The position numbers and the translations under genes are program-made. Below the pieces are notes generated by a model that had not been told where the DNA came from, searched no databases, and saw nothing but the letters and a program-made list of their open reading frames with translations. Below, one piece after another: positions 3,983-36,496 of a stretch of DNA of 39,377 nucleotides. Each line of letters opens with the position of its first letter. The first letter of the stretch is position 1. The DNA lies in assembly GCA_946415795.1 (NCBI GenBank), contig CAMKTW010000001.1:1-39377 (forward strand), in the 5' to 3' direction. Source of the DNA: an uncultured Bacteroidales bacterium (GTDB lineage Bacteria > Bacteroidota > Bacteroidia > Bacteroidales > UBA932).

Positions 3983-4125
3983 AACAATTTATATTTTTCT
4001 ATAAATTTATATCTTTTCCTATCTGCTCAGCGAATATACAAATAACTTGCGAAAATCCCCAGCTATGACAAAACTGCCCTGAAAGCCGAGGCTTCACTCA
4101 GGAGATATTGAATACGAAGGAATGG

Positions 4126-4770: not shown

Positions 4771-5518
4771 TGATGATCCAGTCGTATCCTTTTGCCTCAA
4801 TTTCGAGCGCCAGTTCGCGGCCGCCCGTGAGAATTATGCGCCCGTTATAGAGCACATGTATCACATCGGGCACGATGTAGCTGAGCAGCCGCTGATAGTG
4901 CGTTATCACTATGAAGGCATTTTCTTTTGTGCGCAGGCTGTTTACCCCCTCGCCAACTATCCTGAGCGCATCCACGTCCAGGCCACTGTCGGTCTCGTCC
5001 AGGATGGCCAGCTGCGGCTCCAGGACGGCCATCTGAAGCACCTCGTTGCGCTTCTTTTCACCACCGGAGAAGCCTGCGTTCACCCCCCGGGAGAGAAAAC
5101 TGCGGTCCATGTTCACCAGCGGGAGCTTGCTGTTCACCAGCTTCAAGAACTCTGCGCCGGAGAGTTCCGGCAGCCCCTTGGCCGTACGCTGCGCAGCCAC
5201 GGCGCTCTTAAGCATTGCTGTATTGCTCACGCCAGGTATCTCCACAGGATATTGGAAACCGAGAAAGAGGCCGGCCCAGGAGCGTTCTTCAGGAGACATA
5301 TCCAGCAGCGAGACGCCGTTCATCAAGGCTTCGCCCTCCGTGACGATATAGCCTGGCTTACCCGCCAACACACCGCTGAGCGTGCTTTTTCCGGCGCCGT
5401 TGGGCCCCATTATGGCGTGCACCTCGCCCCGACCCACCTCAAGGTTGATGCCCCGGAGTATCTCCCGGTCCTCTACCGAGGCGTGCAGATTCTTGACTTC
5501 CAGTAATATATCAGACAT
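4763..5518 (-). CDS. sufC: Fe-S cluster assembly ATPase SufC
   Basis: Walker A GPNGAGKST, ABC signature FSGGEKKR, Walker B LAILDETDSGLD. 251 aa. Confidence 0.95.
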   Translation of the reverse strand: MSDILLEVKNLHASVEDREILRGINLEVGRGEVHAIMGPNGAGKSTLSGVLAGKPGYIVTEGEALMNGVSLLDMSPEERSWAGLFLGFQYPVEIPGVSNTAMLKSAVAAQRTAKGLPELSGAEFLKLVNSKLPLVNMDRSFLSRGVNAGFSGGEKKRNEVLQMAVLEPQLAILDETDSGLDVDALRIVGEGVNSLRTKENAFIVITHYQRLLSYIVPDVIHVLYNGRIILTGGRELALEIEAKGYDWIING

Positions 5519-16625: not shown

Positions 16626-18161
16626 TTACTGCTGCAAAAAAACGGGACGGACCGATAGCCCATAGCAGCGGTAGCTGCTGTAACTGTAGAAATCATCCGA
16701 ATTGAAGTGGACGGTGCGCGCGTTGTACGGGTAGCCCGTACTGAGGGAAGAAGACCAGTATCTGCCGTCGATCCCGACATAAACGAGTTGGGTAACGGTC
16801 CGGCCACCGGCAGCGGGCAGGAATATGCTGTTGCCGTTGGGGCCGGTAACCAGCCTTCCGTTTACACCGTCCCGTGTCGTCCATTCCCAGGTGCATTCTG
16901 TCCTGAGCTCTGTCCACTCCTCCTCTGTGGGTATTCTCCAGTTGCCCCCCCAGTTGACACTGGCTGCGTCGTCCTCGGGATCTAATATGGCATTGTTGTC
17001 GATATTGCCGTATGAACTGCTTGTACAATACTTGGTCATCGTACCGCCGGTACCATTGCACCACTGGTATGATGCCCAGTTGTAACCAGCGGTCTTGTCG
17101 GATTTCCAAGTCAACGGGTCCAGGCTGCTGTAATACGGCTCCGTCTCTCCCCAGGCGAAATAATCGCCAGATTCCTCGGGAGCATTTGCTCCAAGGTTGC
17201 AGGTTGCCCACTTTAATCCGGACGGAAGCCCCAGATTGACGTATTCGTGCGAAAGGTAAGGATGGGGCTCGTCAATATTTACGACCGGCATCTTGAGGAG
17301 ATTGGAACGGGTGATGGTCTGGCTCCGGGTAGTCTTTAATTCCGTTCGTCTGCCTTGGGTATCGGTAATGGTGACCGTGAATCCTTTTGTCATTTTCACA
17401 GGCGGGAGGGCAATGATGAACACCGTGGCGAGTTCCTCTTCAAGCTGTACGCCATATCCACAACCCAAAGTAACAGGAGATGTCGGTACTGTCGGAGTTG
17501 CATCTGCCAGGGTGATTGCAGGTGCTGCGGTATTAGACACTGTAATCGTTGCCTCTCCGCAGAGTTTCTCACCGTTATTGCCCTCTATGCTGATTGATAG
17601 TATTGTTGCCGTACCCGTCAGCTGGAGCTTCAAACCGCCCAGAACGTTCTTGAACATCAGGTTCATATCACTGACGGACCTCGATACTGCCGCCATCGGG
17701 AACGCTTCGTCGCCGATGTTTGCATAGGCATAGCTCTGGGTTGCCGGGAGGATAATGTCGCTTAAGACATACGAATCCCCGCGCCTGGCGATTGCTGCCG
17801 TCGATGAATAAGGGTAGAAGGCGACATTTACGGGTAGCTCGCCGCCGGCAACGAATCCGGGGCTTTCCATCCTTTCCAGGATAGCAGCCTGCTGCCCTTC
17901 CGACATATCGGAGACCCGGTACTGCTCATTGATGGTGCTTCCGGCAAAAAGGCTTACCCGGTCACCCTGTTCCCAGATAACGGTGCCGAAGACGTCAAGG
18001 AAGGTCTTGGTTTCTATCCCGGCTCCGCCGTCATCGGTTAACTTCTCGATGGTGGCCGTGAAAACCTTTCCTTCCGAAGTTGCGTCACTCTTTTCTACCT
18101 TCTGGCAGCTACATACTGCCACCGCGACCATAAGGCCTGATACCAATACCTTTTTCATCAT
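16626..18161 (-). CDS. surface lipoprotein: fimbrillin-like N-terminal domain plus one FISUMP/DUF1566-like C-type-lectin-fold module (paralogue A)
   Basis: Real start MMKKVLVSGLMVAVAVCSCQ (lipobox) at 18161/18158. The upstream 93 codons of ORF 16626..18443 are read-through. C-terminal module (about 16629-17245): LGLPSGLKWATCNLGA, GDYFAWGETEP, WRIPTEEEWTEL, NGNSIFLPAAG, YWSSSL, GLSVRPV. Confidence 0.85.
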   Translation of the reverse strand: MMKKVLVSGLMVAVAVCSCQKVEKSDATSEGKVFTATIEKLTDDGGAGIETKTFLDVFGTVIWEQGDRVSLFAGSTINEQYRVSDMSEGQQAAILERMESPGFVAGGELPVNVAFYPYSSTAAIARRGDSYVLSDIILPATQSYAYANIGDEAFPMAAVSRSVSDMNLMFKNVLGGLKLQLTGTATILSISIEGNNGEKLCGEATITVSNTAAPAITLADATPTVPTSPVTLGCGYGVQLEEELATVFIIALPPVKMTKGFTVTITDTQGRRTELKTTRSQTITRSNLLKMPVVNIDEPHPYLSHEYVNLGLPSGLKWATCNLGANAPEESGDYFAWGETEPYYSSLDPLTWKSDKTAGYNWASYQWCNGTGGTMTKYCTSSSYGNIDNNAILDPEDDAASVNWGGNWRIPTEEEWTELRTECTWEWTTRDGVNGRLVTGPNGNSIFLPAAGGRTVTQLVYVGIDGRYWSSSLSTGYPYNARTVHFNSDDFYSYSSYRCYGLSVRPVFLQQ

Positions 18162-18181
18162 AACTACCAGATTTAATAATT

Positions 18182-18316
18182 CTACCACTCTCCTTGTGTC
18201 TCGGTCACTTTCTCGGTCTCGCTGCCGCAGATTACACTTTGGATTCCTACAGAAAGTACATCGCATACAGGAGTTGTGTACTCCATAACGCTCTCGTTCT
18301 CCATCAGTTTTTTCAT
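18182..18316 (-). CDS. conserved 44-aa upstream ORF (copy A): MKKLMENESVMEYTTPVCDVLSVGIQSVICGSETEKVTETQGEW
   Basis: ATG 18316, TAG 18184-18182, 20 nt before the lipoprotein ATG. It has paralogues at 36293..36421 and inside 18520..18903. All 5 nucleotide differences from copy B in the last 19 codons are synonymous. Confidence 0.65.
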   Translation of the reverse strand: MKKLMENESVMEYTTPVCDVLSVGIQSVICGSETEKVTETQGEW

Positions 18317-18368
18317 AATTCTTTTTGTTTATAATTATAAGTAAATGTCGGTTCCAATATCTGCACCT

Positions 18369-18399
18369 CAAATTTATGCAATTTTCATTATAGTTGCAA
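18369..18399 (-). promoter_or_regulatory. promoter TTGC-N19-TAAATTTG for uORF A and lipoprotein A
   Basis: -7 box TAAATTTG (rc of 18369-18376) and TTGC (rc of 18396-18399). The geometry is identical to 36466..36496. Confidence 0.5.
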
Positions 18400-18519
18400 G
18401 ACACTGCCGGGGTCGGATGCAGAACAGTCGGTGCGGTGCGCAATTGCGATATGGCATATGCTCAATGGTTAAAAGATGTCTGCAAGCTCTCTTACTCCGG
18501 CTTCTATTGGTTTGCACAA

Positions 18520-18903
18520 TTAATCTGTGACGGGACGTACAGAGAACCCGTTGTAGCGGTCGTCGGGGTAGTCGTCTATAGTATCTGAGAAATAGATAAC
18601 ATAAGCATAGTACGGACTTCCCGTACTAAGAGAGGAAGACCAGTAGTAGCCGTAGGATCCTGTTTCTGTGATACTTGTATAGCCCCGGCTGCCGGCGGCA
18701 GGCAGGAATATGCTGTTGCCGTTGGGGCCGGTGACCAGACTTCCTCTGACTCCATTCTGCCTGGTCCACTCCCAGGTGCACTTGGTCATAAGCTCTTTCC
18801 ACTCGCCCTGGGTCTCGGTCACTTTTTCGGTCTCGCTGCCGCAGATTACACTCTGCGTACCAATAGCAAGAACTACGCATACTGGAGCGTTGTAAACGCT
18901 CAT
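18520..18903 (-). CDS. 127-aa fusion: uORF-type peptide joined in frame to the C-terminal half of a FISUMP/DUF1566-like lectin module (copy B)
   Basis: MSVYNAPVCVVLAIGTQSVICGSETEKVTETQGEW | KELMTKCTWEWTRQNG...NGNSIFLPAAG...YWSSSL...GFSVRPVTD. No signal peptide. The ATG at 18903 lies inside track ORF 18520..18963. It may be a deletion remnant. Confidence 0.55.
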   Translation of the reverse strand: MSVYNAPVCVVLAIGTQSVICGSETEKVTETQGEWKELMTKCTWEWTRQNGVRGSLVTGPNGNSIFLPAAGSRGYTSITETGSYGYYWSSSLSTGSPYYAYVIYFSDTIDDYPDDRYNGFSVRPVTD

Positions 18904-19840: not shown

Positions 19841-19911
19841 TGAGATATGGTGTAATGGTAGCACTACAGATTTTGGTTCTGTCTGTCGAGGTTCGAATCC
19901 TCGTATCTCAA
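19841..19911 (+). tRNA. tRNA-Gln (anticodon UUG)
   Basis: Folded by hand. Acceptor TGAGATA/TATCTCA with a U1-A72 pair, D arm GTGT/GCAC, anticodon arm ACAGA-TTTTGGT-TCTGT, T arm CGAGG-TTCGAAT-CCTCG, discriminator A. CCA is not encoded. Confidence 0.9.
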
Positions 19912-20885: not shown

Positions 20886-21872
20886 ATGTTAAAGATAAGA
20901 TACGTCGTCGCCGCCATCGCCGTTGCGGCAGCACTGCTGGCCGGCTGCAAGGGTGGTTCCGGCAAAAAAGCGGAAGGCAATCCCGCCGACAACCGCTTCG
21001 CGATGCCTGAACTGCCGTCTATGATTTCTGACCAGCAGCAGGCAATGGAGTATATCACAGCCCATTTCTGGGACAAATTCTTAGCCGAAGACCGTCCCGG
21101 CGTGCAGGATACCTCTCTGGTACGCGGATTTACCGTGGAGGCCTTTACCGAACACTTCTGCCAGTACGCCCTGTACCTCAGGGCTGTGCCCCCCCAGAAG
21201 GGGCTGGCCGCCACCCGCAGTTTTCTGGACAGGGTGGAGAAGATCCAGCTGGCAAATCCGGAAGGAACCCTTTGGCACAAGGTTACAGACGTTTACTTCA
21301 AGATCCTGCAGGATCCCAATTCCCCATATCGCAACGAGGAGTTCTGCATACCCCTGATAGAGAAACGCGCCACCAGCCCCCTCGCCACAGAAGAGGAAAA
21401 AGCCCGCGCAGAACACGATCTGCCCCGCTTCTGCCTGAACCGTCTGGGGGAGAAGGCGGCCAATTTTGCCTTCACCCTGAGAAGCGGCCGGGTTATGAAC
21501 CTTTATGACATAGACAGCGAATACACTATGATCTTCTTCAGCAACCCCGGCTGTGCAAACTGCCGTGAGGTTATAGAGATGCTGAAAAGCTTTCCCGGAA
21601 TTGACCAGCTTATTGAAAACCGGCAGCTCGCCGTTGCCAACGTCTATCCCGATGCCGACCTGGGAGAATGGATCAAGTATGCCCCTATTTATCCGACCAA
21701 CTGGTACAACGGCTACGACCACCTTCTGGCCGTTAACAGTACGCCGCTCTACAACATAAGGGCTATCCCCTCTGTTTATATGCTGGACAGGGACAAGACT
21801 GTCCTGCTGAAAGACGTCCCTTCCGATTTGCTGATGGAGTTCCTGAAAGCGGTGTTCGGCACTACAAATTAA
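20886..21872 (+). CDS. lipoprotein with DUF5106-like N-terminal region and thioredoxin-fold (TlpA-like) C-terminal domain
   Basis: Lipobox LLAGC. The C-terminal half has FFSNPGCANC (CxxC) and a thioredoxin-like pattern. Its 3' end overlaps the convergent 983-aa gene by 11 nt. Confidence 0.7.
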   Translation: MLKIRYVVAAIAVAAALLAGCKGGSGKKAEGNPADNRFAMPELPSMISDQQQAMEYITAHFWDKFLAEDRPGVQDTSLVRGFTVEAFTEHFCQYALYLRAVPPQKGLAATRSFLDRVEKIQLANPEGTLWHKVTDVYFKILQDPNSPYRNEEFCIPLIEKRATSPLATEEEKARAEHDLPRFCLNRLGEKAANFAFTLRSGRVMNLYDIDSEYTMIFFSNPGCANCREVIEMLKSFPGIDQLIENRQLAVANVYPDADLGEWIKYAPIYPTNWYNGYDHLLAVNSTPLYNIRAIPSVYMLDRDKTVLLKDVPSDLLMEFLKAVFGTTN

Positions 21873-24813
21873 CTCCGGTCACGAACTCTGCACCAAAGCG
21901 CCACTTCCCGTCAAAATCAAGATGACGGTTGAAGCGGCCGCCAACGTTCAGCTCCGGGCCAAGCCTGAATATGTGCCCCTGGATGGTGAGGACGGTACCA
22001 TAGGAGGCCATATGCTGCACTCCTGCCGGACTGCGGTTCACCGCATAATCTGCAAACGGAACCACATTGATACGCATCAGGTAGAGCAGTATCGGCACCG
22101 GATGCCAGTCATTGATATTGATGGGTATCGCATACTCTGCGGTAAGCTTGAAATAGTCGTACAGAGGCACTGATTTGTAACCCCTGGGCGCCTTTGACAA
22201 ATTCAGCATATAGCTGCCGGCATCCCCGTCGTCGAACCGCTTCTGGGCGCCTGCGGTGAACTTGAATCCCTGCAACTGGGTAAATCCGGGGACATAGCCA
22301 TAAACATATCCGTACAACCCCTTTCCAACCCCTGAATAGGATCCTCTGGCGTAAGCACCCTTGACCTCCGCACCAATACCCAGTCGAGGCATTATTGCCC
22401 CCTTGGGAATGGGGAGGACACTGTAGTAACGCAGTCCCGCCTCAATATCTCCGCTACCAACGCGCTCATCATCGCCCTGGATGAATTTATCGTTATTCCA
22501 GTTAACCGCTACGCGGGGAATAAAAGCCCTTTTCCACCCGCCGCTTGACAGGTTGATATTAGTGTATATCGATCCGGTGAGTTCCAGCGCGGGGCGGGGT
22601 GGTATGTATGATTGATCTACGCCGCGTCTAGAAATGACTTCGTCGTGATATCGGACGGCACTGGTGCCATAACCAATCCTGCGCTGGGGGCGGTCGTTAT
22701 AGTCTGCAGCTATCTCAAAGATTGGCCACAGGCCGCTGTAGTTGAAGTTGAAATGGCCCGCCACCCGCTTGTTGTGATAAGAGACTCCGGCAATCGCCAC
22801 CGCCGTACCCAACAGGTTCTGTGAAATGACTGTAACACCGGGCGCCGCCAGCTGGTAGTAGTGGTCGTAGCTCATATTCATTATGCGGTTCACACCGGCG
22901 TATATGGGCGCCCACGAGTGGAAATGAAGCAGATGCAGAGGCTTAAAGTAACGTTTGGCCGGGAGTGAATCCACCCGGGCACGGATCTCTGCCTGACGCT
23001 TGGCAGAGAGGGCTGGAGCCATCGTATCGGCCTGGGCAGAGAAACGTTCGGCATCGCTGAAAAGGAAAGGCTGGTCAAAATGGACATCTTCCCAGAGCAG
23101 GTCTGCACGAGTGGTCTTCACCGGACCGTAGCCGCGATGGTTGTAGTCGCTGTAATACAGCGTCCCAGTCTCATTGTCAAAATGGGGATATGCGGCTCCG
23201 AACATCGCGTTGGTAAGTTTCTGGGCGCGATGGGTGGCCGGATTGAAGGAGTATATGTTTGCGATGCCGTCCAGGTCGGTCTCGAACAGCAACCGGTTTC
23301 CTGCGCGCTGCAGGTTGAGTATGGAGCGGGTCTGGGGCTCGATCTCAACGCTCCACTGGGCAGAGGAATCTCCCACCGGGCGGGAATAGAGGCCCCACTG
23401 CCCGTCGCCGATGATGGCATCGACGTAAATCCGGTCCCCGACCCAGGCGGTGCTGTGTATCTGGCCGCCGCCGGGAGCCGCAATGCGGGCTATCTCATCC
23501 ATCGTGCCGGCATCCAGCAGCACTATCTGGGAGGTGCCGTCCAGGGCGTATTCGGTAACTGTCATACGGTCGCCCACAGGAGAGTAGGCCGGATTGAACC
23601 ACCGGGTACGGTGGGTGAGGGTACGCATACGGCCGGTGTTCAGGTCGTAGGAGCGGATCACGGAGTAGTTTTTCAATTCCCAGCGGGGGTGGGGGACTAC
23701 CTCCGACCAGACCAGGGTATGGTCGTCCTTCTTTATCACGAGGCTGGTATTGCTGCTGGTGGCAAAGGGACGTATGTAGTGCTCCTGCCCTTCAGCGTCT
23801 ATGGATATCAGCCGGCTGGCCTGGGTCATACTGGCCTTTACCGCCAATACTCCGCCGTCTACGGGGAGCACTGAGGTGTAATTGCCATAGTAGCCGTCGT
23901 CGTAACTGGTGAGCAGTTCTGCCACTGTGTAGGGAGCCCTCTCGATGAAATCTGCCCGCCACTTGTTTTTGAAGTAGTCCACGGCGCCGTGGAAGTTCTT
24001 GCGGCGGGTGCGGCCGGTATATTTCTGATAAGCCTTGTTCAGGATGCTCGGGTCGTACCAGTAGCGGGTGTAGTCGTGATATATGTCGCCGATTACATAG
24101 TAGTCGGAATTGTCCCGCATAAATGTCTCCATAATGTAGCCGAACGCGTACTTGCTGGGGATGAAATTGCGCACCGAGCCAAAGCGGTAGGTATCGTAGG
24201 AGCGGTTCTCTCCCGACAGGAAAGAGGCCCTGAAGGGCATCAGGAAGTTGGGGTCGCGTCCACGGCCGGCACTGGAGAAATCTGTCTCGGAGTGGACCGC
24301 ATCGCCCTCAAGCTCCCATCCGGAGGGATAAAAGCCGATGCCCAACCCCACAGACTGCTCTCCAAGCAGATACCGGAACACCTTGAAGGTGCCGGTGGTG
24401 AAGTGTGTCACCTGGCCGATGTGTCGCCCTTCGTGCATCGCCAGCTGGTGAACCCAGGTATCGGCAAAACCGCGATTGAACGGCGGGGTGGTGAAAATGT
24501 CCACCCTGCGCGGAGCCCACACCACTGTGGCGTTGCTGGAGAGGGTATAGGGGTGGAGAATCAGGGGAATCTCGCTGTTCTCTATTTTGAGCCCAACCTG
24601 TGTGCGGGGGCGGGCTATTTCAAAGTTATAGAGGTACTCCCGTGCCAGCGAATCCAGTCCGCCGGGATATATAACCCGGTAGTTATCCCCCTTTATTATG
24701 CTCCAGCGGGCGCCGGCGGGATCGGCTCCCAATTGGTAATACTGAGCCCCCGCCCCCAGCGAAAAGGCAAGCAGCAGCACAACGACGGATATGACTCTAT
24801 CGATTCTCTTCAT
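21862..24813 (-). CDS. large secreted/outer-membrane protein of unknown function (N-terminal HExxH-containing region, central beta-propeller-like region, beta-rich C-terminus)
   Basis: 983 aa with a signal peptide (..GAGA/QYY). An HEGRH motif is encoded at 24421-24435. The middle has TolB/PD40-like repeats and the C-terminal third is Gly/Tyr-rich with alternating residues, suggesting a barrel. No family assignment. Confidence 0.6.
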   Translation of the reverse strand: MKRIDRVISVVVLLLAFSLGAGAQYYQLGADPAGARWSIIKGDNYRVIYPGGLDSLAREYLYNFEIARPRTQVGLKIENSEIPLILHPYTLSSNATVVWAPRRVDIFTTPPFNRGFADTWVHQLAMHEGRHIGQVTHFTTGTFKVFRYLLGEQSVGLGIGFYPSGWELEGDAVHSETDFSSAGRGRDPNFLMPFRASFLSGENRSYDTYRFGSVRNFIPSKYAFGYIMETFMRDNSDYYVIGDIYHDYTRYWYDPSILNKAYQKYTGRTRRKNFHGAVDYFKNKWRADFIERAPYTVAELLTSYDDGYYGNYTSVLPVDGGVLAVKASMTQASRLISIDAEGQEHYIRPFATSSNTSLVIKKDDHTLVWSEVVPHPRWELKNYSVIRSYDLNTGRMRTLTHRTRWFNPAYSPVGDRMTVTEYALDGTSQIVLLDAGTMDEIARIAAPGGGQIHSTAWVGDRIYVDAIIGDGQWGLYSRPVGDSSAQWSVEIEPQTRSILNLQRAGNRLLFETDLDGIANIYSFNPATHRAQKLTNAMFGAAYPHFDNETGTLYYSDYNHRGYGPVKTTRADLLWEDVHFDQPFLFSDAERFSAQADTMAPALSAKRQAEIRARVDSLPAKRYFKPLHLLHFHSWAPIYAGVNRIMNMSYDHYYQLAAPGVTVISQNLLGTAVAIAGVSYHNKRVAGHFNFNYSGLWPIFEIAADYNDRPQRRIGYGTSAVRYHDEVISRRGVDQSYIPPRPALELTGSIYTNINLSSGGWKRAFIPRVAVNWNNDKFIQGDDERVGSGDIEAGLRYYSVLPIPKGAIMPRLGIGAEVKGAYARGSYSGVGKGLYGYVYGYVPGFTQLQGFKFTAGAQKRFDDGDAGSYMLNLSKAPRGYKSVPLYDYFKLTAEYAIPININDWHPVPILLYLMRINVVPFADYAVNRSPAGVQHMASYGTVLTIQGHIFRLGPELNVGGRFNRHLDFDGKWRFGAEFVTGVNL

Positions 24814-26593
24814 TAAAATAGGCGTAAACGTTTGCAGCTACTTTTTTACCCACGACCTCTTCCAAATCGTGAAGAGATGCCTCTTTAATCCGCTTTACGC
24901 TCTTGAAACGGGTCAACAGCCTGGCGGCCGTAGCTTCGCCGACCAGCGGAATCTCTGCAAGTTGCGAGCCAATCTGACTCTTTGAGCGCAAGTTACGGTG
25001 ATGGGTTATGCCAAACCTGTGAGCCTCGTCGCGGATTTGCATCAGCACCTTCAGTGAGGTGGAGTTCTTGTCTAGGAAAAGGGGATATGGATCGCCGGGG
25101 CGTATTATCTCCTCCAGCCGCTTGGCAAGTCCCACGGCGCACACCTTATCGGCAATGCCCAGCTCGTGCAGCGCCTCCATCGCGAAGTGCAGCTGGCCGC
25201 GGCCGCCGTCTATCACGATCAGCTGCGGGAGGGGCTCTCCCTCAGAGAGCAAACGCGAATAGCGGCGGTTCACCACCTCTTTCATAGAGGCATAGTCGTT
25301 GGCTCCCACCACGGTCTTTATGTTGAAATGGCGGTAATCTTTTTTGCTCGGTCGGCACTCGCGGAACACCACGCACGATGCTACCGGATTGGTCCCCTGG
25401 ATGTTGGAGTTGTCGAAACACTCTATGTGACGCGGCAGATCCTGCATCCCCAAATCGCGTTTTAAAGACTCCATCACCCTCATATTGTATTCATCAGGAT
25501 TGACCTTCTCCTCGTGGCGGTATTTTTCTACCTTGAGCGCTCCGGCGTTCTTCTGGCTGAGGCGCAGCAGTTCCAGCTTCTGCCCACGTTGCGGCACAAT
25601 GACCTCAACCCCTGAGAATTCGCCTCCAGGGGCAAACGGCACCACCACCTCCTTTGACAGCGCCCCGAACTTGGATATCATCTCTGCTATGAATGTGGCC
25701 AGAACCTCCTCTTCAGGTTCCTCTATGCGCGCCTCCAGCTCCATATTGAAGCTCTGCACCACGCACCCCTCGCGGATTCGCAAAAAATTGCAGAAGTGCT
25801 CCTGTCCTTCGCTCACCATAGAGAAGACGTCGGTGTCGCTCATCGTCTGGTTCACAATGGCAGATTTGGAGTAGTGGCGCTCCAGCAGCATTGCCCGCTC
25901 CTTATAGACCTGGGCCTGTTCGTATTCCAGGCGCGCCGCCGCCGCCGCCATTTTTTCCCGGTTCTCCCGGATAAGGCCGCGGGCCCCTCCGGAGAGCAGC
26001 GTCTCCACCGACGATATCATTGCATCGTAACCATCGCGACTGATGCGTCCCACGCACGGTGCGCTGCACCTTCCCAGATGTGCGTTCAGGCACACCTTGA
26101 ACTTGCCGGCGGCGATTGCCTCGTCCGACAGGCGCATCTTGCAGGTGCGAAGGGAGTAGAGCTGCGCGATAAGCTCCAGCATCGCGTGGGCGTAGGATGC
26201 ATTACTGTAAGGCCCGAAATAGCGGCTGCCGTCTTTTGCCAGGCGGCGGGTCAGCATAACCCTTGGGTAGGGCTCTTTCTTTATCACTATCCAGGGGTAT
26301 GTCTTGCTGTCTTTAAGGAGTATGTTATAGCGGGGCTGGAGCTTCTTTATAAGGTTGTTCTCCAGCAGCAGGGCATCCTGTTCCGTCTCCACCACGGCAA
26401 AAATCATATCGGCAACCTTGCTTACCATCACCCTGGTCTTGCGGTCCAGGCTTTCCGGAGGTCGGAAGTATTGCGAGACGCGACGGTGGAGGTCCTTGGC
26501 CTTGCCCACATATATCACCTCCCCCTCTCTGTCAAGAAAGCGATACACGCCCGGCGAGTGGGGCAGCAGGCTGACTTTTTCCCTTACATTCAA
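24797..26593 (-). CDS. uvrC: excinuclease ABC subunit C
   Basis: GIY-YIG N-terminus (PGVYRFLD..G.VIYVGKAKDL..RV.QYF), UvrBC and endonuclease-V-like domains, and a C-terminal HhH. The start codon is TTG at 26593, overlapping the upstream stop. No in-frame ATG occurs before residue 55. Confidence 0.93.
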   Translation of the reverse strand: MNVREKVSLLPHSPGVYRFLDREGEVIYVGKAKDLHRRVSQYFRPPESLDRKTRVMVSKVADMIFAVVETEQDALLLENNLIKKLQPRYNILLKDSKTYPWIVIKKEPYPRVMLTRRLAKDGSRYFGPYSNASYAHAMLELIAQLYSLRTCKMRLSDEAIAAGKFKVCLNAHLGRCSAPCVGRISRDGYDAMISSVETLLSGGARGLIRENREKMAAAAARLEYEQAQVYKERAMLLERHYSKSAIVNQTMSDTDVFSMVSEGQEHFCNFLRIREGCVVQSFNMELEARIEEPEEEVLATFIAEMISKFGALSKEVVVPFAPGGEFSGVEVIVPQRGQKLELLRLSQKNAGALKVEKYRHEEKVNPDEYNMRVMESLKRDLGMQDLPRHIECFDNSNIQGTNPVASCVVFRECRPSKKDYRHFNIKTVVGANDYASMKEVVNRRYSRLLSEGEPLPQLIVIDGGRGQLHFAMEALHELGIADKVCAVGLAKRLEEIIRPGDPYPLFLDKNSTSLKVLMQIRDEAHRFGITHHRNLRSKSQIGSQLAEIPLVGEATAARLLTRFKSVKRIKEASLHDLEEVVGKKVAANVYAYFNEENR

Positions 26594-29500
26594 TCGGCCA
26601 GAGACTTGATGCTGTTGTTAATCCAGTCGTATTCTTCCTGATAGCCGCTTGCGCGGAACAGGTTTGCCAGGTAGGTGACATACTGCATCTCACGATCCAG
26701 GGTTTCCTCGTCCAGTATGTCGCCGTGGAACGGCTGGCTGGAATATACCATAGATTTGAGCGCCTCTTCCATATATGCACGGGAGAGGGCCTGGGCCTTC
26801 TCAAAGCGCCCCAGGGTAAGATAGTGGTCGATGGAGGTTAGAACCTCGTATTCGTTAGACCCCCGGATTATCGCAATATCGTAAGGGATATTCTTAGCCG
26901 GGGTCACTTCATAGCAGCGGTCCAGCACCGCCTCCGCCTCTTCAAAGCGGAATTCGCTGATAAGCTTGGCGGCCACCTGGTTAAAGATGCCGCGCACCGG
27001 CGTCACACTGCTGAAGGCGTAGAGATTGAAGTAATCAAAGTTGATGGTGGTGTCCTTCAGGCTGTCAAAGCGGTAATCCTCCATCACCATACGGTACATC
27101 TTGTCAAGGTCCATCTGTTTTGCCTCGGAACCCTGAGGGCACTCTATCGGGACAATCTTGTATGCATAACCGTCAAACTGAAGGTATTTGCCAATCTCAA
27201 AGGTGCAGTCACCGTTCTGGCTCACAAAGTAAATGGGCCGGTCCCACTTGTAGTTGTTCAGTATGTCAAGCAGTATCAGGTCGGTCTTGGTAATCACGCT
27301 GCTGTCGTCCGGAATCTTAAGCTCCAGTGCGTCCAGCATCTTGTCGGCGTCTTTTCCCAGTACGATGCCGGCTTCAAGCGCTTTCTCCTTGTCCACAGGC
27401 ACAATTATGGTGCGGCTGGCCACCACACCGCTGCTGCCGCTGCGGTACTTGGGGTTGGTGAACACCGTCATCACCTCCTCTACGGTGGCGGGACGGCCGA
27501 AGGCGTCGATCACCTGCACAAAATCGTTGGTGCCGTAGAGATAATCCCTGCGCGGCAGCGAAATCGGGAGCGGGGCCGACTTGTTGCTGCGGCATTTCAT
27601 CTGGTCTATATACCAGTCCATCCCGAGCAGCGATGTGTTCATTATGCGGACATCGGTGCGGATACCCTCTACCTCCTGTGCATACCACAGGGGGAAGGTG
27701 TCATTGTCGCCGTGGGTAATCAGGATACCGTTCTCTTCGCAGCTGTTCAAATAGTTGTATGCCTCCTCTATCGAGGTGTAGCGGCCACTTCGGTCGTGGT
27801 CGTCCCAGTTCTGGCAACCCATCAGGACCGCCACCGCAATGGCCAGGACGCTTGCCGCAGAGGCTGTTGCCACAGAGGTGCCGGCAGCAACCTTCTCGCC
27901 GTTCTCGCGGGCGATACCCTTGCCCGTCAGGTTGTCTAACCAGTCTTTAATGGCCATCACCGCCAGTCCTATCCAGATTGCGAACACATAGAAAGAGCCC
28001 GCGTATGCGTAGTCGCGCTCACGCGGCTGGTAGGGGGTCTGGTTGAGGTAAATGATTATGGCGATGCCTGTCAGGAAAAACAACAGGAAGGTGATCCAGC
28101 CGTTGCGACCGTCGTGTTTGAGCTGGAAGAACAGCCCTATCAGACCCAGTATCAACGGGAGGAAATAGTAGTGGTTCTTGGCCTTGTTGTGCGCTATGTA
28201 GTCGGGGGCGAGGCTCTGGTCGCCCAGGCGTATCTCGTCCAGGAACTTTATGCCGCTCTCCCAGTTGCCGCAGGAGGGGTCTCCCGGCACCTGGCCCTGA
28301 AGGTCGTTCTGACGCCCCACAAAGTTCCAGAAGAAGTAGCGGAAATACATATAACTCAGCTGATAGTCAAAGAAGTAGCGCAGATTGTCGCGCATCCTGG
28401 GCATCTGGGTCTTCTTCAGGCTGCCGTCGGCCATACGGACTGTCTTTGTCTTGAAATCGCCCATAGTGTAGGCGTCGTAGAATTGCTCGTGAGTGCGGGA
28501 CTGCGTGCTCCACATACGGGGGAAGAGCATCTTTGCCCCCATAGGGTAATCGGGCTCCAGCGGCTTGGCTGTCTTGAAGTATTTATCGTCAAGTTTGGTC
28601 CAGTAGGTACCGTCCTTGATGTCATATACAGATTTGTAGCTCTCTCCAAACACCACCGGCTTGCTGCCGTACTGCTCCCGGTTTATATAACGCACCAGCG
28701 TGTAGGGGTTGTCCGGAGAGTATTCGTTTGTGGGCGGATTTGCGTTGGCGCGGATTACCACCACGGCAAATACAGAATAGCCTATAAGGATGGCGGTGAA
28801 GGCCAGCGTCAGGGTGTGGGCTACCGCCTTTTCGCGGCGCCGGAAATAACGCAGCAAGGCAAAGCAGGCGGCAAACATCAGCAGGGCCAGTATAGACGCC
28901 CCCAGGTTGAATGGTGCGCCCAGGCTGTTTACAAAGAAGCGGTCAAAGCTGGCGATGACCCTTGGCACCCACGGGATGATGATAAAGAGTATGAGCGCCA
29001 GCACCAGAGCAGAAATGGCCAACATCAGCACCCCTCTCCAGAAGGTCATCTTCTCTCCCTCGTGACTCTTGTAATAGTATATGAACACTATTACCGGTAT
29101 TACGAGCAGGCTGAGCAGATGGATGCCGATGGAGAGTCCCAGCAACAGCGCAATGAACACCAGCCAGCGGTCGTTATACGGCTCCCCGTAGTGCTCTTCC
29201 CACTTCAGGATAGCCCAGAACACTATAGCTGTCACAAGACTGGACATCGCATACACCTCGCCCTCAACCGCAGAGAACCAGAAGGTATCGGAGAAACAGT
29301 AGGCCAGCGCCCCGGCAGCTCCCGCCCCCAGCACGGCTATCGCCGCCCCGTTGGTGAGCGCCTTTCCCCGCCGCTCCAGCAACCTCCTGCCAAAATGGAC
29401 GATGGTCAAAAACAGGAAGAAGATGGTGAAGGCAGAGCACACGGCACTGCAGCAGTTCACCGCCGCAGCCGCGTGTTCCGGCCCGGTAAACATCGTGAAG

Positions 29501-29694
29501 AAACGGGCAATCAGCTGGAACATAGGGTTTCCCGGGGGATGACCCACCTCCAGTTTGTATGAAGACGCTATGAATTCGCCGCAGTCCCAGAAACTGGCGG
29601 TAGGCTCAATGGTGGAAAGATATACGCAAGAAGAGAGGACAAGTATTACTATTGCCAGTATGTTCTTGATTCTCTCAAATAATTTTTTCTCCAT
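26590..29694 (-). CDS. DUF2723-family polytopic membrane protein (glycosyltransferase-C-like) with C-terminal TPR-like region
   Basis: Real start MEKKLFERIKN at 29694. FWDCGEFIASSYKLEVGHPPGNP is the DUF2723 hallmark. About 1034 aa. The upstream part of ORF 26590..30081 is antisense to yciH and is spurious. Confidence 0.85.
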   Translation of the reverse strand: MEKKLFERIKNILAIVILVLSSCVYLSTIEPTASFWDCGEFIASSYKLEVGHPPGNPMFQLIARFFTMFTGPEHAAAAVNCCSAVCSAFTIFFLFLTIVHFGRRLLERRGKALTNGAAIAVLGAGAAGALAYCFSDTFWFSAVEGEVYAMSSLVTAIVFWAILKWEEHYGEPYNDRWLVFIALLLGLSIGIHLLSLLVIPVIVFIYYYKSHEGEKMTFWRGVLMLAISALVLALILFIIIPWVPRVIASFDRFFVNSLGAPFNLGASILALLMFAACFALLRYFRRREKAVAHTLTLAFTAILIGYSVFAVVVIRANANPPTNEYSPDNPYTLVRYINREQYGSKPVVFGESYKSVYDIKDGTYWTKLDDKYFKTAKPLEPDYPMGAKMLFPRMWSTQSRTHEQFYDAYTMGDFKTKTVRMADGSLKKTQMPRMRDNLRYFFDYQLSYMYFRYFFWNFVGRQNDLQGQVPGDPSCGNWESGIKFLDEIRLGDQSLAPDYIAHNKAKNHYYFLPLILGLIGLFFQLKHDGRNGWITFLLFFLTGIAIIIYLNQTPYQPRERDYAYAGSFYVFAIWIGLAVMAIKDWLDNLTGKGIARENGEKVAAGTSVATASAASVLAIAVAVLMGCQNWDDHDRSGRYTSIEEAYNYLNSCEENGILITHGDNDTFPLWYAQEVEGIRTDVRIMNTSLLGMDWYIDQMKCRSNKSAPLPISLPRRDYLYGTNDFVQVIDAFGRPATVEEVMTVFTNPKYRSGSSGVVASRTIIVPVDKEKALEAGIVLGKDADKMLDALELKIPDDSSVITKTDLILLDILNNYKWDRPIYFVSQNGDCTFEIGKYLQFDGYAYKIVPIECPQGSEAKQMDLDKMYRMVMEDYRFDSLKDTTINFDYFNLYAFSSVTPVRGIFNQVAAKLISEFRFEEAEAVLDRCYEVTPAKNIPYDIAIIRGSNEYEVLTSIDHYLTLGRFEKAQALSRAYMEEALKSMVYSSQPFHGDILDEETLDREMQYVTYLANLFRASGYQEEYDWINNSIKSLAD

Positions 29695-29753
29695 AAAAAC
29701 TTTGCAAAGTCCGTCTATATTACGACAAATGTACGAATTAGTTTTTTTATAAC

Positions 29754-29761
29754 TAAATTTG
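29754..29761 (+). promoter_or_regulatory. -7 box TAAATTTG upstream of yciH
   Basis: TAnnTTTG match 21 nt upstream of the ATG at 29783. Confidence 0.4.
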
Positions 29762-29782
29762 CAGCCGTAAATCGCTTCCGCT

Positions 29783-30130
29783 ATGTCCAACGACTGGAAA
29801 AACCGCCTGGGTGTCGTGTACTCCACAGACCCCAACTTCAAATATGTCACACAGGACGACATTGACCAGGAGCCGGAGACCCTCCCGGCTGAGCGCCAGA
29901 AGCTGGTGGTGGCCATTGACCGCCGGAACCGCGGCGGGAAGCAGGTTACTGTGGTGAACGGATTCGTGGGGCGGGAAGACGACCTTGCCTCCCTGGCAAA
30001 GACCCTTAAGACTAAATGCGGCGTAGGCGGGAGCGCCAAGGACGGCCAGATAATTATCCAGGGCGATATGCGCGACCGCATCGTAGATATCCTGTTATCG
30101 ATGGGCTACAAGGCAAAACGCGGCAACTGA
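29783..30130 (+). CDS. yciH: SUI1/YciH-family translation initiation factor
   Basis: 115 aa. Contains RRNRGGKQVTVV.GF, LAK.LK.KCGVGGS and I.IQGD.R..I...L. Confidence 0.9.
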   Translation: MSNDWKNRLGVVYSTDPNFKYVTQDDIDQEPETLPAERQKLVVAIDRRNRGGKQVTVVNGFVGREDDLASLAKTLKTKCGVGGSAKDGQIIIQGDMRDRIVDILLSMGYKAKRGN

Positions 30131-33001: not shown

Positions 33002-36000
33002 TTAGTCTTTGACGGGACGGACTGAGTACCCGTAGGCGCGCACGGCGCTGCCCGCGCTGGGACCAACTGAATCAAAGCCCACGCCCATCGCTTTATACGG
33101 GTCGAACGTATCGAGAGTCGAAGACCAATATGCGCCAAGTGAGCCGACACTGTCGCGGTTGGTAGCATACCGGTATCCTGCAGCGGGCAGGAATATGCTT
33201 TTGCCATTGGGCCCAGTAACTTGATATCCGTTTTTACCGTATAGTGCAGTCCACGTCCATGTGCATTCATTCTGGAGTTCTGTCCACTCTGCTTCAGTGG
33301 GCATTCTCCAGCTGCCTCCCCAGTTTGCATAGGCTGCATCGTCCGCTAAGTCAAGGACGGTCTTGTTATCAATGGTACCGTAAGCACCTCGTGTATTGTA
33401 TTTGGTCAATGTATAAGAGCTACCGTTACACCATTTGTACGATGCCCAGTCATATCCGGTAATCGCAGGATTCGTGCGGGAGCGCCAGTCACTGCAAGGG
33501 TTATCCTGAGAATGGCCGCTCATGTAATACGGATCCGTCTCACCCCAGGCGAAATAGTCGCCGTATTCATCGGCTGCAAATGCACCAACATTGCAGTTTG
33601 CCCACTTTATGCCGGAGGTAAGGCCCAGATCGACCGCCTCGTGTTCTTTCACTACCGCCTGATATGATGCCGAATAGTCTCCGTCGCATGTTGTACCGAC
33701 AATGGTGGCTGTGCCGGCAGAAAGTGCCATGACTTTACCCTCCCAGGTAATCGATGCGACTGACGTATTATATGATTTCCATACGATATGCTTGTGGGTT
33801 GCATTGGATGGAGAAACGGTTGCATTCATCGAATATGTTTGGCCAACGGTCAACGACACAGCCCCAAGTGGCAGCGATATCCCGGTTACGGGTACCCACT
33901 CACTATCGTCCTTAACGGGACGAACGGCAAGTCCGAGGTAGCGGTGGTAGTAGCCGTCATATGACATATCACTTGCAGAGACATTCAGGCCCATAGCGCC
34001 AGTAGGGGTGTACTTATCGAGGGAAGAAGACCAGTAGTCGCAGGTGGTGCCGACCCTGTAGGAGTTCGAATTTCTCCGGTAACCGGCGGCGGGGAGGAAT
34101 ATGCTGTTGCCATTAGGGCCGGTAAGCAAATCTCCTGTCACTCCGTTCCGGGTTGTCCAAGTCGATGTGCAATTATCTATCAATTCTTGCCACTCATCGA
34201 TTGTAGGCATACGCCATCCGTCACCCCAAGAGGCCCTTGCAGCATCGTCTTCGTAACCATAACATATGAAATCCGTTCTGTGGTCCACCGTACCATATCC
34301 TTTGGTATTGTATCTGGTAAGCACACTTCCGTTACCGTTGTCGCACCACTGATACGATGCCCAGCTATAATCGCTGTCGGGTTCGGTCTCACCCCATGCA
34401 TAATAATCTCCGTACTCCTCCGGTGCGGTGGCGCCGAGGTTGAATGGTGCCCACTTCCGGCCCGAAGGCAGGCCCAGGTCAACGGCCGTCAGGGCTGCAT
34501 TGACAGTCACTGTGCATGTCGCTGTAAATCCGCCGTCAATTGTCGTTACCGTGATGGTGGCGGTGCCGGCAGCCACAGCTGTCACCGTACCGTTTGCATC
34601 GACGCTCGCAACGTCCGTATCGCTGGAGGACCAGCTCACTGCCGGCCGCGATGCACTCGAGGGCGCAACGGTCGCCGTTAAAGTTGCCGTTTCTCCCTCA
34701 GTAAGGGATATGTTGCCCGGATCAAGCGTTACGCCGGTCACGCGGATCACATCTTCATCCGAGACGGGACGGACAGGGAAACCGTAGTATCTGGGTGCAT
34801 TGGCAAAACGGATAGTTGCCGAATAGAAATCGGCGTACCTCGCATTGGAAGTGGTTTCTGGGTTTACGGTTGATGACCAGTAGCCTCCGGTGGAACCCGC
34901 ATGGTAGAAGTATGTGCCTTGTCTGTCACCCGCAGCCGGGAAGAAGATGCTGTTATTGTTGAGCCTGCTTGTCGCCAACTGTCCGTTCACCCCGTTCCGT
35001 GTGGTCCATGTCCAGTTGCAATTTGCCATCAGCTCAGCCCAATCCTCCTGCGTGGGCATACGCCAGTCTCCGCCCCAATTGGCACTTGCGGCATCGTCTT
35101 CTAAGTCCAATTCCATCTTGTCATCGTCGATAAAATACTTGGTCAGGCTCGACTCCGACCCTTCACACCACTTGTAAGTTGACCAGACGTATCCTTCACT
35201 CTTGCCGTCTTTCCAATTACTGCAAGGATTGTCTTGAGCATGACCCTCGGTATAATAAGGCTCTGTCTCGCCCCACGCATAGTAATCACCGTACTCCTCA
35301 GGTGCGCCCGCGCCGAGGTTGAAGGTTGCCCACTTAACGCCAGAAGGCAAGCCCATGTCAACGGCCTCGGGAACCGGCGGAACATAAGGCGCGGTGCCGA
35401 CATAAGTCACCGCAGGCATCGAGAGGATGTTAGACCTGGTGATGGTCTGGCTCCTGGTGGTCTTTATCTCCATCGAGGCGCCCTGCGAGTCACAAACCAC
35501 CACTGTGAAGCCACCCTCCATTGTCATCGGAGGCAGCGCTATGATGAATGCCGTCGCCTCAGTCTCGCTCAGCTGCACATACTCCTGGCAAATCAGCGTC
35601 GCCCTCGTACCATCGGCATCTGTCATCTCTACAGAAGGTGCATTGTCGGCAGACGCCGTAACCTCTGCCGAACCGCAGAGTAGCTCGCCGTTGTTGCCCG
35701 TGATGCTTACGGATGTGATCTCCGCCGTTCCTTTCAGCCGCAACTTCAACCCTCCGAGCACATTCTTGAACTTGAGGTTGTAATCACTCGCAGAACTTGT
35801 AACGGCCACCATTGGGAACGCCCCGTTGCCGAAGCTCGCCTGCGCGAAATACTGCGTATAGGGGAAAACTATGTCGCTGATGACATAAGAGCTCCCGTTT
35901 TGTACGATTCCTGCCGTTGCCTCATACGGATAGAACGCCACGTTGTTGCTAATCGCTTCTGAGGGAACGGATTCAGGATTCTCAACTCTGAACAGCGCCG

Positions 36001-36268
36001 CAGCCGTCTTACCGTCCGACGCATCGGTCACCTGATAGTGCTCGTTGACGGTGCTCCCCACAAAGATGCTCACCTGGTCCCCAAGCGTCCAGAGCACATT
36101 GAGATTATCCAGCGATGTCTTGGTGCCTATGTCGGTTGCATCGCCGACAATGGCCTCCATGGTGGCTGTGAAACTTTTGCCCTCGGGGGCAAATTCGCCC
36201 TCCTCTTTAACCTGGCAGCCGCATACTGCAAATAAAGCCAAAAGGCCTAATACTAAACTTCTTTTCAT
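33002..36268 (-). CDS. surface lipoprotein: fimbrillin-like N-terminal domain plus three FISUMP/DUF1566-like lectin modules separated by two Big_2 Ig-like domains (paralogue C)
   Basis: Lipobox LFAVCGC. The N-terminal 300 aa align with paralogue A (FTAT.E...TKT.L....V.W..GD.VS.F.GST.NE.Y.V.D). Lectin modules lie at about 34760-35366, 33908-34483 and 33005-33636. Big_2 domains lie at about 34500-34744 and 33652-33893. Confidence 0.88.
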   Translation of the reverse strand: MKRSLVLGLLALFAVCGCQVKEEGEFAPEGKSFTATMEAIVGDATDIGTKTSLDNLNVLWTLGDQVSIFVGSTVNEHYQVTDASDGKTAAALFRVENPESVPSEAISNNVAFYPYEATAGIVQNGSSYVISDIVFPYTQYFAQASFGNGAFPMVAVTSSASDYNLKFKNVLGGLKLRLKGTAEITSVSITGNNGELLCGSAEVTASADNAPSVEMTDADGTRATLICQEYVQLSETEATAFIIALPPMTMEGGFTVVVCDSQGASMEIKTTRSQTITRSNILSMPAVTYVGTAPYVPPVPEAVDMGLPSGVKWATFNLGAGAPEEYGDYYAWGETEPYYTEGHAQDNPCSNWKDGKSEGYVWSTYKWCEGSESSLTKYFIDDDKMELDLEDDAASANWGGDWRMPTQEDWAELMANCNWTWTTRNGVNGQLATSRLNNNSIFFPAAGDRQGTYFYHAGSTGGYWSSTVNPETTSNARYADFYSATIRFANAPRYYGFPVRPVSDEDVIRVTGVTLDPGNISLTEGETATLTATVAPSSASRPAVSWSSSDTDVASVDANGTVTAVAAGTATITVTTIDGGFTATCTVTVNAALTAVDLGLPSGRKWAPFNLGATAPEEYGDYYAWGETEPDSDYSWASYQWCDNGNGSVLTRYNTKGYGTVDHRTDFICYGYEDDAARASWGDGWRMPTIDEWQELIDNCTSTWTTRNGVTGDLLTGPNGNSIFLPAAGYRRNSNSYRVGTTCDYWSSSLDKYTPTGAMGLNVSASDMSYDGYYHRYLGLAVRPVKDDSEWVPVTGISLPLGAVSLTVGQTYSMNATVSPSNATHKHIVWKSYNTSVASITWEGKVMALSAGTATIVGTTCDGDYSASYQAVVKEHEAVDLGLTSGIKWANCNVGAFAADEYGDYFAWGETDPYYMSGHSQDNPCSDWRSRTNPAITGYDWASYKWCNGSSYTLTKYNTRGAYGTIDNKTVLDLADDAAYANWGGSWRMPTEAEWTELQNECTWTWTALYGKNGYQVTGPNGKSIFLPAAGYRYATNRDSVGSLGAYWSSTLDTFDPYKAMGVGFDSVGPSAGSAVRAYGYSVRPVKD

Positions 36269-36292
36269 GGTAAGACTGTTATTATCATTGTT

Positions 36293-36421
36293 CTACCATT
36301 CACCTTCTGTCTCGGTTACCTGCTCGTTCTCGCCGGAGGTCTGGCAGATTCTATGCCGGATACGTACAGTAATTACTTCGCTTACAGGTGCGTCGTAAAC
36401 ATTTTTCGTCAATTTTTTCAT
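36293..36421 (-). CDS. conserved 42-aa upstream ORF (copy C): MKKLTKNVYDAPVSEVITVRIRHRICQTSGENEQVTETEGEW
   Basis: ATG 36421, TAG 36295-36293, 24 nt before the ATG of the 1088-aa lipoprotein. It shares MKKL, (N/S)VY.APV, IC and VTETxGEW-TAG with copies A and B. Confidence 0.6.
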   Translation of the reverse strand: MKKLTKNVYDAPVSEVITVRIRHRICQTSGENEQVTETEGEW

Positions 36422-36465: not shown

Positions 36466-36496
36466 CAAATTTATGTATTTATCTGCCAATTAGCAA
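36466..36496 (-). promoter_or_regulatory. promoter TTGC-N19-TAAATTTG for uORF C and lipoprotein C
   Basis: -7 box is rc of 36466-36473 and TTGC is rc of 36493-36496. The spacing and -7 sequence are the same as at 18369..18399. Confidence 0.5.

Follow-up and report, generated by a model that had tools for sequence, protein, structure and literature searches.

A conserved small open reading frame of an undescribed family directly upstream of pilin-like lipoprotein genes in rumen and gut Bacteroidales

Short open reading frames (ORFs) that lie directly upstream of a gene on the same strand and conserve their amino acids at the C-terminus are familiar from the leader peptides TnaC, SecM, MifM, SpeFL and ErmCL and from the leader of Bacteroides tetQ; in TnaC, the ribosome stalls at the stop codon and a Trp residue is critical. 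A second point of reference is the type V pili of the FimA/Mfa1 superfamily, with their tip subunits (Mfa3-5) and anchor (Mfa2). We know of no small, signal-less peptide gene described as part of the fim or mfa operons; nor, outside Porphyromonas, are regulators or helper factors of type V pilin-like surface proteins known to us. For gut and rumen Bacteroidales, the small proteins as a whole have hardly been charted. We analysed a stretch of 39,377 nucleotides (nt) from an uncultured Bacteroidales bacterium (lineage UBA932; contig CAMKTW010000001.1 of assembly GCA_946415795.1), hereafter called the window, in which an initial annotation made from the DNA letters had pointed out three related small coding segments, copies A, B and C, associated with lectin-domain lipoprotein genes. 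Judged by their sequences, the two free-standing copies, A and C, belong, as genuine small genes with predicted translation, to a family from rumen and gut Bacteroidales that has not been described before; each precedes a lipoprotein gene on the same strand. The features concerned are the following (aa, amino acids):

18182..18316, minus strand: copy A, small ORF MKKLMENESVMEYTTPVCDVLSVGIQSVICGSETEKVTETQGEW, 44 aa, TAG stop (direct reading and tblastn)
18369..18399, minus strand: promoter-like element 5' of copy A, with TTGC at 18399-18396, 19 nt, and TAAATTTG at 18376-18369 (sequence reading)
18162..18181, minus strand: AT-rich spacer of 20 nt from the stop of copy A to the ATG of lipoprotein A
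16626..18161, minus strand: lipoprotein A, 511 aa, ATG at 18161
18520..18903, minus strand: copy B, chimeric ORF of 127 aa with the peptide core at 18903-18799
36293..36421, minus strand: copy C, small ORF MKKLTKNVYDAPVSEVITVRIRHRICQTSGENEQVTETEGEW, 42 aa, TAG stop (direct reading and tblastn)
36466..36496, minus strand: promoter-like element 5' of copy C, with TTGC at 36496-36493, 19 nt, and TAAATTTG at 36473-36466
36269..36292, minus strand: spacer AACAATGATAATAACAGTCTTACC of 24 nt from the stop of copy C to the ATG of lipoprotein C
33002..36268, minus strand: lipoprotein C, 1088 aa, ATG at 36268

The coordinates, lengths and stop codons first given for copies A and C, their distances of 20 and 24 nt from the next gene, and the position of copy B all proved exact. 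In a tblastn search against the window the three copies recover each other with E-values of 1e-8 to 1e-16, the next matches having E >= 0.17; their mutual similarity is far above chance. The shared promoter geometry upstream of A and C (TTGC, 19 nt, TAAATTTG) was confirmed by reading and recurs upstream of homologues in loci L031 and L027; we take it to correspond to the Bacteroides -33/-7 promoter consensus. The element in front of copy C sits after a terminator-like hairpin and T-run belonging to a 909-aa ORF (36548-39277), which is without annotation here and whose C-terminal residues lead us to presume a Sec-family protein.

Set against the leader peptides named above, copies A and C share the position directly upstream on the same strand and the C-terminal amino-acid conservation. 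The family differs from those leaders in having no sequence similarity to them, no alternative RNA structure or terminator to relieve, a distance from Trp to stop that varies in 19% of members, invariant residues some 30 positions further upstream and an orphan copy; unlike SecM and MifM, it also lacks their kind of export signal. The downstream lipoproteins resemble the tip subunits of type V pili in combining a predicted pilin-fold N-terminal domain with an adhesin or enzyme payload, whereas the loci carry no accompanying stalk, anchor or protease genes, matches to Mfa_like_1 stay below threshold, and polymerisation is hypothetical. Both lipoproteins of the window end in domains of the FISUMP/DUF1566 (Lcl_C) type, as in the lipoproteins named after them; here, in contrast, the lectin is a swappable payload, and a profile-profile comparison (hhalign) of peptide and lectin gave nothing. 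Operon-encoded small subunits and chaperones, finally, offer parallels in that stop and start lie 1-24 nt apart, each cluster has a single copy and a 32-residue core is under purifying selection, but homology to any of them is not detectable and, signal-less as the peptide is, its presumed partner is an exported protein. As far as sequence comparison goes, we are thus dealing with a small ORF coupled to an adhesin gene and without homology to any described example.

A profile built from the three copies matched 41 close protein clusters of 37-77 aa, nearly all ending in VTETxGEW, and an exhaustive hidden Markov model search of 1.84 billion representatives returned 94 clusters at 50% identity with E <= 1e-3. 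The family comprises at least 94 clusters and about 147 sequences, mostly of 37-60 aa, of which 85 diverse members were aligned. They follow the pattern M-polar-Y..P.C.V(I/L).V..Q.V(I/L)C.S..TE.V.E..GEW-stop: a variable polar N-terminus, a hydrophobic core of about 20 residues (Y..P.C.V[IL].V..Q.V[IL]C.S) that probably resembles a beta-hairpin, and an acidic tail of about 12 residues. Seven positions (Y13, P16, C30, S32, E35, G42 and W44) are conserved at >= 90% in the alignment, and from P16 to C30 the hydrophobic pattern persists. Beyond the C-x-S motif the tail has a mean charge of -4.1 and a commonest length of 12 residues. The Trp is exactly terminal in 119 of the 147 members (81%), the other 28 (19%) being extended or differently ended; distant members finish in EEDLF, DPDWFN, WGW or WGGPVE. 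AlphaFold2 modelled the 44-aa peptide alone with a predicted local distance difference test score (pLDDT) of 82-88 over residues 11-40.

The peptide had been put forward as belonging to no known family, and this held throughout. Pfam and NCBIfam gave no significant family match for the 85 aligned members (scattered single matches had E >= 0.002), PHROGs and PADLOC gave none to the peptide, PDB sequences gave none of significance (best E 0.057) and none to pilins, and a Foldseek search with the peptide model returned 0 matches. Inspection of the family's sequences revealed no Sec, Tat, lipoprotein or double-glycine signal. The description of these ORFs as unannotated needs amending: gene callers had already called the 41 close clusters, and in two NCBI metagenome-assembled genomes members bear the label 'hypothetical protein'.

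Among GTDB species representatives the close subfamily is confined to two rumen Bacteroidales metagenome-assembled genomes, with three copies in the genome from goat rumen and four in that from sheep reticulum. Gut and rumen assemblies in ENA and Logan supplied further members; a single distant member was present on 121 contigs. A protein identical to copy A is present in a public collection (P0001), and copy C has close relatives in P0003, P0005, P0012 and P0013 and an orthologous cassette in L013, where its 24-nt spacer is near-identical; similar spacers occur in L006 and L016. Of two scans of JGI metagenomes, the first gave none; the second gave a genuine locus, L043, and a false positive, L044 (186-263), a DUF151/bifunctional-nuclease-like protein whose ICSSGTEDVEID stretch in common with a peptide subfamily was judged to be chance. 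No member was found on IMG/VR viral contigs; with nothing in PHROGs, PADLOC or IMG/VR, a phage or defence origin of the peptide was rejected.

Selection on the peptide itself had been proposed from a comparison of the window's copies, and it is borne out by the family. Over the 19 codons QSVICGSETEKVTETQGEW copies A and B differ at five nucleotides, all five changes being synonymous, and the synonymous changes GTG/GTA, GGA/GGT and GAG/GAA between A and C are likewise present. Across 20 distinct nucleotide versions of the 32-codon core, the mean ratio of non-synonymous to synonymous differences per site (pN/pS) is 0.28, with 0.49 in the first half and 0.13 in the last 16 codons. In comparisons with the divergent subgroup pS climbs to about 0.92: synonymous sites have reached saturation, yet the peptide is maintained, and it is therefore the polypeptide, and not the DNA or RNA, that is under selection. 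No free-standing copy has its reading frame interrupted.

Copy B stands apart. It makes up the N-terminal 35 codons of the ORF 18903->18520, fused in frame to the C-terminal half of a lectin domain at the junction ...TETQGEW|KELMTKCTWEWT..., and this ORF has no signal peptide. Its peptide part shares 83% nucleotide identity with copy A, and its lectin part is 81% identical to that of lipoprotein A. A 6-nt microhomology, GAGTGG, belongs to both matches; it encodes Glu-Trp, a pair found in the lectin motif PTxxEW as well. Another sample yielded a related 99-aa protein (P0126) that has lost a further internal segment. On these sequence grounds copy B is probably a recombination product in decay and not a third functional copy. 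Its divergence from copy A in the peptide segment is mostly synonymous (dN/dS, the corresponding ratio of substitution rates, 0.14), and this synonymous divergence may be older than the fusion. About 0.9 kb from copy B lies a tRNA gene (19841-19911, plus strand; 64.7 bits), the only RNA that an Rfam scan of the window returned.

The pairing of the peptide gene with a lipoprotein gene, on which the initial annotation had built, is a fixed one. In about 16 of some 17 distinct contexts the peptide gene stands directly upstream of, and on the same strand as, the lipoprotein gene, the exception being a single orphan (L027); the neighbourhoods are otherwise unrelated and include MutS/FtsX, UvrA, GroEL, ribosomal protein S10 and glycoside-hydrolase operons. 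In tandem arrays one peptide gene serves two or three pilin-like lipoprotein genes, in the orders lipoprotein-peptide-lipoprotein (L016), peptide-lipoprotein-lipoprotein (L031) and lipoprotein-lipoprotein-peptide-lipoprotein (L023). The peptide gene of L039 has a 4-nt overlap with the stop codon of a glycoside hydrolase family 3 (GH3) gene before it and ends 13 nt before its partner, which is the behaviour of an ordinary operon gene. The orphan follows a tRNA-like sequence (~4816-4890); it possesses a TAnnTTTG promoter element and a terminator-like hairpin of its own, with no lipoprotein gene after it. Five population variants of its lineage show four substitutions, none beyond residue 19 of the called ORF, and an invariant core. 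Elsewhere the peptide ORF is intact beside a damaged partner: in L005/L026 (around 957-1045) the lipoprotein ATG has become GAG, leaving a 250-aa C-terminal ORF, and in L029/L030 (L029 1455-2030) the lipoprotein is truncated at 191 aa. A further arrangement is seen in the distant cassette L034, in which a 560-aa lipoprotein (3310-4992) without the pilin-like N-domain lies 8 nt upstream of the peptide; its C-terminus looks FISUMP-like by eye (YYQWGR..., CPSGY...), with no Pfam match recorded, and an outer-membrane beta-barrel-like gene is situated further upstream.

The downstream proteins are 414-1632 aa long, and signal peptides with lipobox sequences (...VAVAVCSCQK, ...LFAVCGCQV and equivalents) could be read by eye in all homologues. 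Lipoprotein A consists of a signal peptide with lipobox Cys, a pilin-like N-domain (~17268-18107) and a C-terminal DUF1566/FISUMP-like lectin domain; the latter scores below threshold (23.2 bits), yet is 45-70% identical to the lectin domains of homologues. In lipoprotein C the N-domain (~35408-36217) is followed by FISUMP/DUF1566 lectin and Big_2 domains (Big_2 109 bits; Lcl_C 60.5, cut-off 34.9; TIGR02145 51.5, cut-off 41.65). Co-occurrence with FISUMP/DUF1566 lipoproteins, suggested at the outset, thus applies to both partners in the window, but does not extend to the family: the payloads comprise DUF1566/FISUMP lectins, Big_2 (immunoglobulin-like) domains and, in L039, a glycoside hydrolase family 5 (GH5) cellulase. 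Common to all downstream proteins instead is the N-domain of about 280 aa, 55% identical between lipoproteins A and C and, by tblastn against lipoprotein A, 54-62% identical in close and 27-37% in distant homologues. Because the N-domain is common to all while the payloads differ, it is the N-domain and not the lectin that is the conserved partner. The frame of lipoprotein A is also open further upstream (16626-18443, minus strand), across the whole small ORF in another frame; this extension, a 605-aa ORF from a TTG codon, could mislead gene callers and is probably a composition effect of GA-rich codons.

The AlphaFold2 model of the N-domain of lipoprotein A (pLDDT 85.6; predicted template modelling score, pTM, 0.82) has as its top Foldseek matches 3T2L, 3UFI and 4K4K, Bacteroides structures of type V pilin or 'putative cell adhesion protein' designation (probability 1.00, E 4.4e-9 to 1.5e-7, TM-score ~0.5), and it also matches P. 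gingivalis Mfa3 (5NF4) and Mfa2 (5NFI). The predicted fold is that of type V pilins, a two-lobed beta-sandwich. By sequence, only the homologue P0087, named 'fimbrillin family protein' at NCBI, reaches Pfam Mfa_like_1 with E 5.5e-4 and 20.5 bits, below the cut-off of 27; for the window lipoprotein, Pfam gave no match to Mfa_like_1. At its N-terminus the model further shows a strand, VFTAT, and after it a loop of low confidence with a conserved TKT, a suggestive hint at most of the processing of type V pilins, in which the N-terminal strand is cut off proteolytically and subunits polymerise by strand exchange. Two possible origins of the peptide were rejected. That it is a collapsed lectin domain (V.IG.Q.W ... 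PTxxEW) was dismissed on the null hhalign result and on the 6-nt microhomology that accounts for the EW junction of copy B; that it is homologous to part of the pilin-like N-domain was dismissed on an equally null hhalign comparison.

The spacers between peptide stop and lipoprotein start measure 1, 11, 13, 15, 20, 21, 22 or 24 nt and, in three loci, 95-100 nt. When RNA was folded for 17 loci, the lipoprotein start region was no more paired than the transcript average, the unpaired probability at -15 to +12 around the ATG being 0.27-0.73. The long spacers (L009 6145-6239, L022 713-809, L025 5130-5229) contain a hairpin, CACCACCGTTTGG...CCAACGGTGGTG, with compensatory differences, no T-run after it, z-scores of -0.8 to -2.7 and the lipoprotein start codon left uncovered; it may serve in RNA processing or stability, or be a small repeat that was inserted. 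The absence of a Shine-Dalgarno sequence, noted for the window's spacers, is not universal, as the L028/L029 subgroup carries AGGAGG within its 15-nt spacer. The same subgroup stops with TAA. All stops seen in the family are TAG or TAA, never TGA. The Trp-TAG ending remarked upon earlier describes copies A and C but not the family; with TAA in divergent members and TAG ending 8 of the 24 long ORFs of the window, Trp-TAG as a special signal was rejected. The spacers of 21 and 24 nt (window 36269-36292; L006, L013, L016, L032) are in frame and stop-free, and a ribosome reading through them would join peptide and prelipoprotein in one chain; the 15-nt spacer also keeps the frame but contains an in-frame TAG, and those of 20, 22, 95, 97 and 100 nt are out of frame. 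Read-through of TAG to give a fusion protein was rejected, the in-frame, stop-free spacers being treated as coincidence.

Two interpretations had been offered at the outset, a stalling leader that gates translation of the lipoprotein and a small partner or chaperone; both still stand, the small-protein reading being somewhat more likely. We put it at slightly short of an even chance that the family would encode a small protein coupled to the lipoprotein gene and acting in trans on the pilin-like lipoprotein pathway, not a pure stalling leader. The peptide gene would be co-transcribed with the adjoining downstream gene, in the window from the Bacteroidetes-type promoter in front of it, and the two are probably translationally coupled because the stop lies only 1-24 nt from the downstream start; the product would then be made at about 1:1 with the lipoprotein. 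Lacking a signal, it should therefore be cytoplasmic, and its effect would be on how the pilin-like lipoproteins of its cluster are produced, made export-competent or assembled. We favour a trans-acting protein because there is an orphan copy, one peptide gene per cluster and members embedded in operons, because endings vary, conserved residues span 32 positions and no RNA structure masks the downstream start, and because AlphaFold2 is fairly confident for the peptide alone. Several observations weigh against it. The peptide carries no signal peptide although the protein it presumably partners is exported, so that a direct physical partnership would call for an unexplained step or a role confined to the cytoplasm; the combination of a variable N-terminus with conservation that peaks at the extreme C-terminus, right at the stop in 81%, is also the classic signature of a regulatory arrest peptide; DSSP assigned no secondary-structure elements to the peptide model; no peptide-lipoprotein fusion protein was found; and the orphan could be a recent deletion remnant. 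The more specific proposal that the peptide is a new component of type V pilin-like adhesin biogenesis, as a small chaperone or assembly factor or as a beta-hairpin donated in trans, seems unlikely at present. If true, the peptide would keep the N-domain of tip-type lipoproteins export-competent or capped, and this would explain why it follows that domain across lectin, immunoglobulin-like and glycoside-hydrolase payloads.

A cis-acting leader, a serious rival although we think it less likely than not, would work through its nascent chain: with the C-terminal ~30 residues in the ribosomal tunnel and Trp in the P site, termination at the stop would be slowed, and the delay would set reinitiation or blocking of ribosomes at the lipoprotein start, with a metabolite or the state of release factor 1 as possible cue. 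The ORF immediately upstream on the same strand, an N-terminus variable in length and sequence before 16 codons with a pN/pS of 0.13, the 81% of members that end exactly at W, the restriction of stops to TAG and TAA, and the missing signal peptide in front of an exported product all agree with such a device. The properties that should be particular to stalling fare less well: TAG is not conserved and is common in the genome (8/24 long window ORFs), 19% of members do not end at W (some close with WGW, WGGPVE, DPDWFN or EEDLF), no conserved RNA structure masks the lipoprotein start in the 17 loci, and the orphan persists with its own terminator. The spread of spacers from 1 to 100 nt and the near-invariant Y and P some 30 residues before the stop also speak against it, and since a ribosome held at the stop would cover a start 20-24 nt away, only repression could result.

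The remaining alternatives appear less probable still. An exported structural partner, in which a free beta-hairpin leaves by an unrecognised route and occupies the donor-strand groove of the surface N-domain or caps one of its edges, is in our view improbable: the family does co-occur with the pilin-fold domain and not with any payload, its hydrophobic core is hairpin-like with a fairly confident AlphaFold2 prediction, and type V pilins are reportedly completed by a strand donated in trans, but no member carries a Sec, Tat, lipoprotein or double-glycine signal, neither hhalign against the N-domain nor PDB pilin sequences gave a match, and some tandem pilin-like lipoproteins are without a peptide of their own. 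We attach very little probability to the peptide giving rise to a signalling peptide or bacteriocin, modified or secreted, with its linkage to the lipoprotein incidental. Small size, the invariant Cys-x-Ser, a semi-conserved N-terminal 'NLSKE' faintly like bacteriocin leaders and one weak match to a huazacin-type modified-peptide model (E 0.026, 1/85 members) would fit; against these stand the lack of a recurring maturase, peptidase-containing ABC transporter or immunity gene in the ~17 contexts, the missing GG cleavage motif, and a conserved core behind a variable leader, the reverse of typical modified-peptide precursors. That the ORF is a non-functional by-product, arisen by chance or decaying and carried along with the 5' end of paralogous lipoprotein genes, might be read from the recombination and decay in copy B and P0126 and from the mutated lipoprotein start codon in L005/L026. 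Frames intact in all free-standing copies, pN/pS values of 0.13-0.28 with saturated synonymous sites, and 94 clusters at 50% identity with seven near-invariant residues make this almost inconceivable, and it can be regarded as effectively refuted.

What emerges is a compact two-gene cassette that should be easy to manipulate, in which a peptide of ~37-47 residues precedes a pilin-fold lipoprotein displaying lectins or a cellulase. A clear sequence signature and strong purifying selection mark the peptide, and there is a fork between a cis leader and a trans protein. Were the leader true, it would represent a new peptide-dependent translational control in the Bacteroidetes, a phylum mostly without Shine-Dalgarno-based initiation; were the trans protein true, it would be a new accessory factor for the display of adhesins and enzymes in fibre-degrading rumen bacteria. 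The finding is an experimentally tractable lead rather than a demonstrated mechanism.

Other genes near the cassettes deserve brief mention. A fragment of a PD-(D/E)XK (PDDEXK_2, Rpn-like) transposase/nuclease is located just downstream of lipoprotein C (window 32523-32918, minus strand), and a 62-aa HTH_Rpn_C gene lies upstream of the cassette in L001 (4033-4221, minus strand) and L002 (413-601, minus strand); the presence of recombination-promoting nucleases beside a recombining family of paralogues may be more than coincidence. A diversity-generating retroelement or a shufflon behind the repeated lectin segments was rejected, there being no reverse transcriptase or invertase in the window. 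Between the two cassettes the window also encodes, on the minus strand, a 983-aa ORF (21862-24813) with no Pfam match and, notably for a Bacteroidales genome, near the surface-protein genes a 1163-aa homologue of TMEM260-like protein O-mannosyltransferases (26590-30081; 238 bits).

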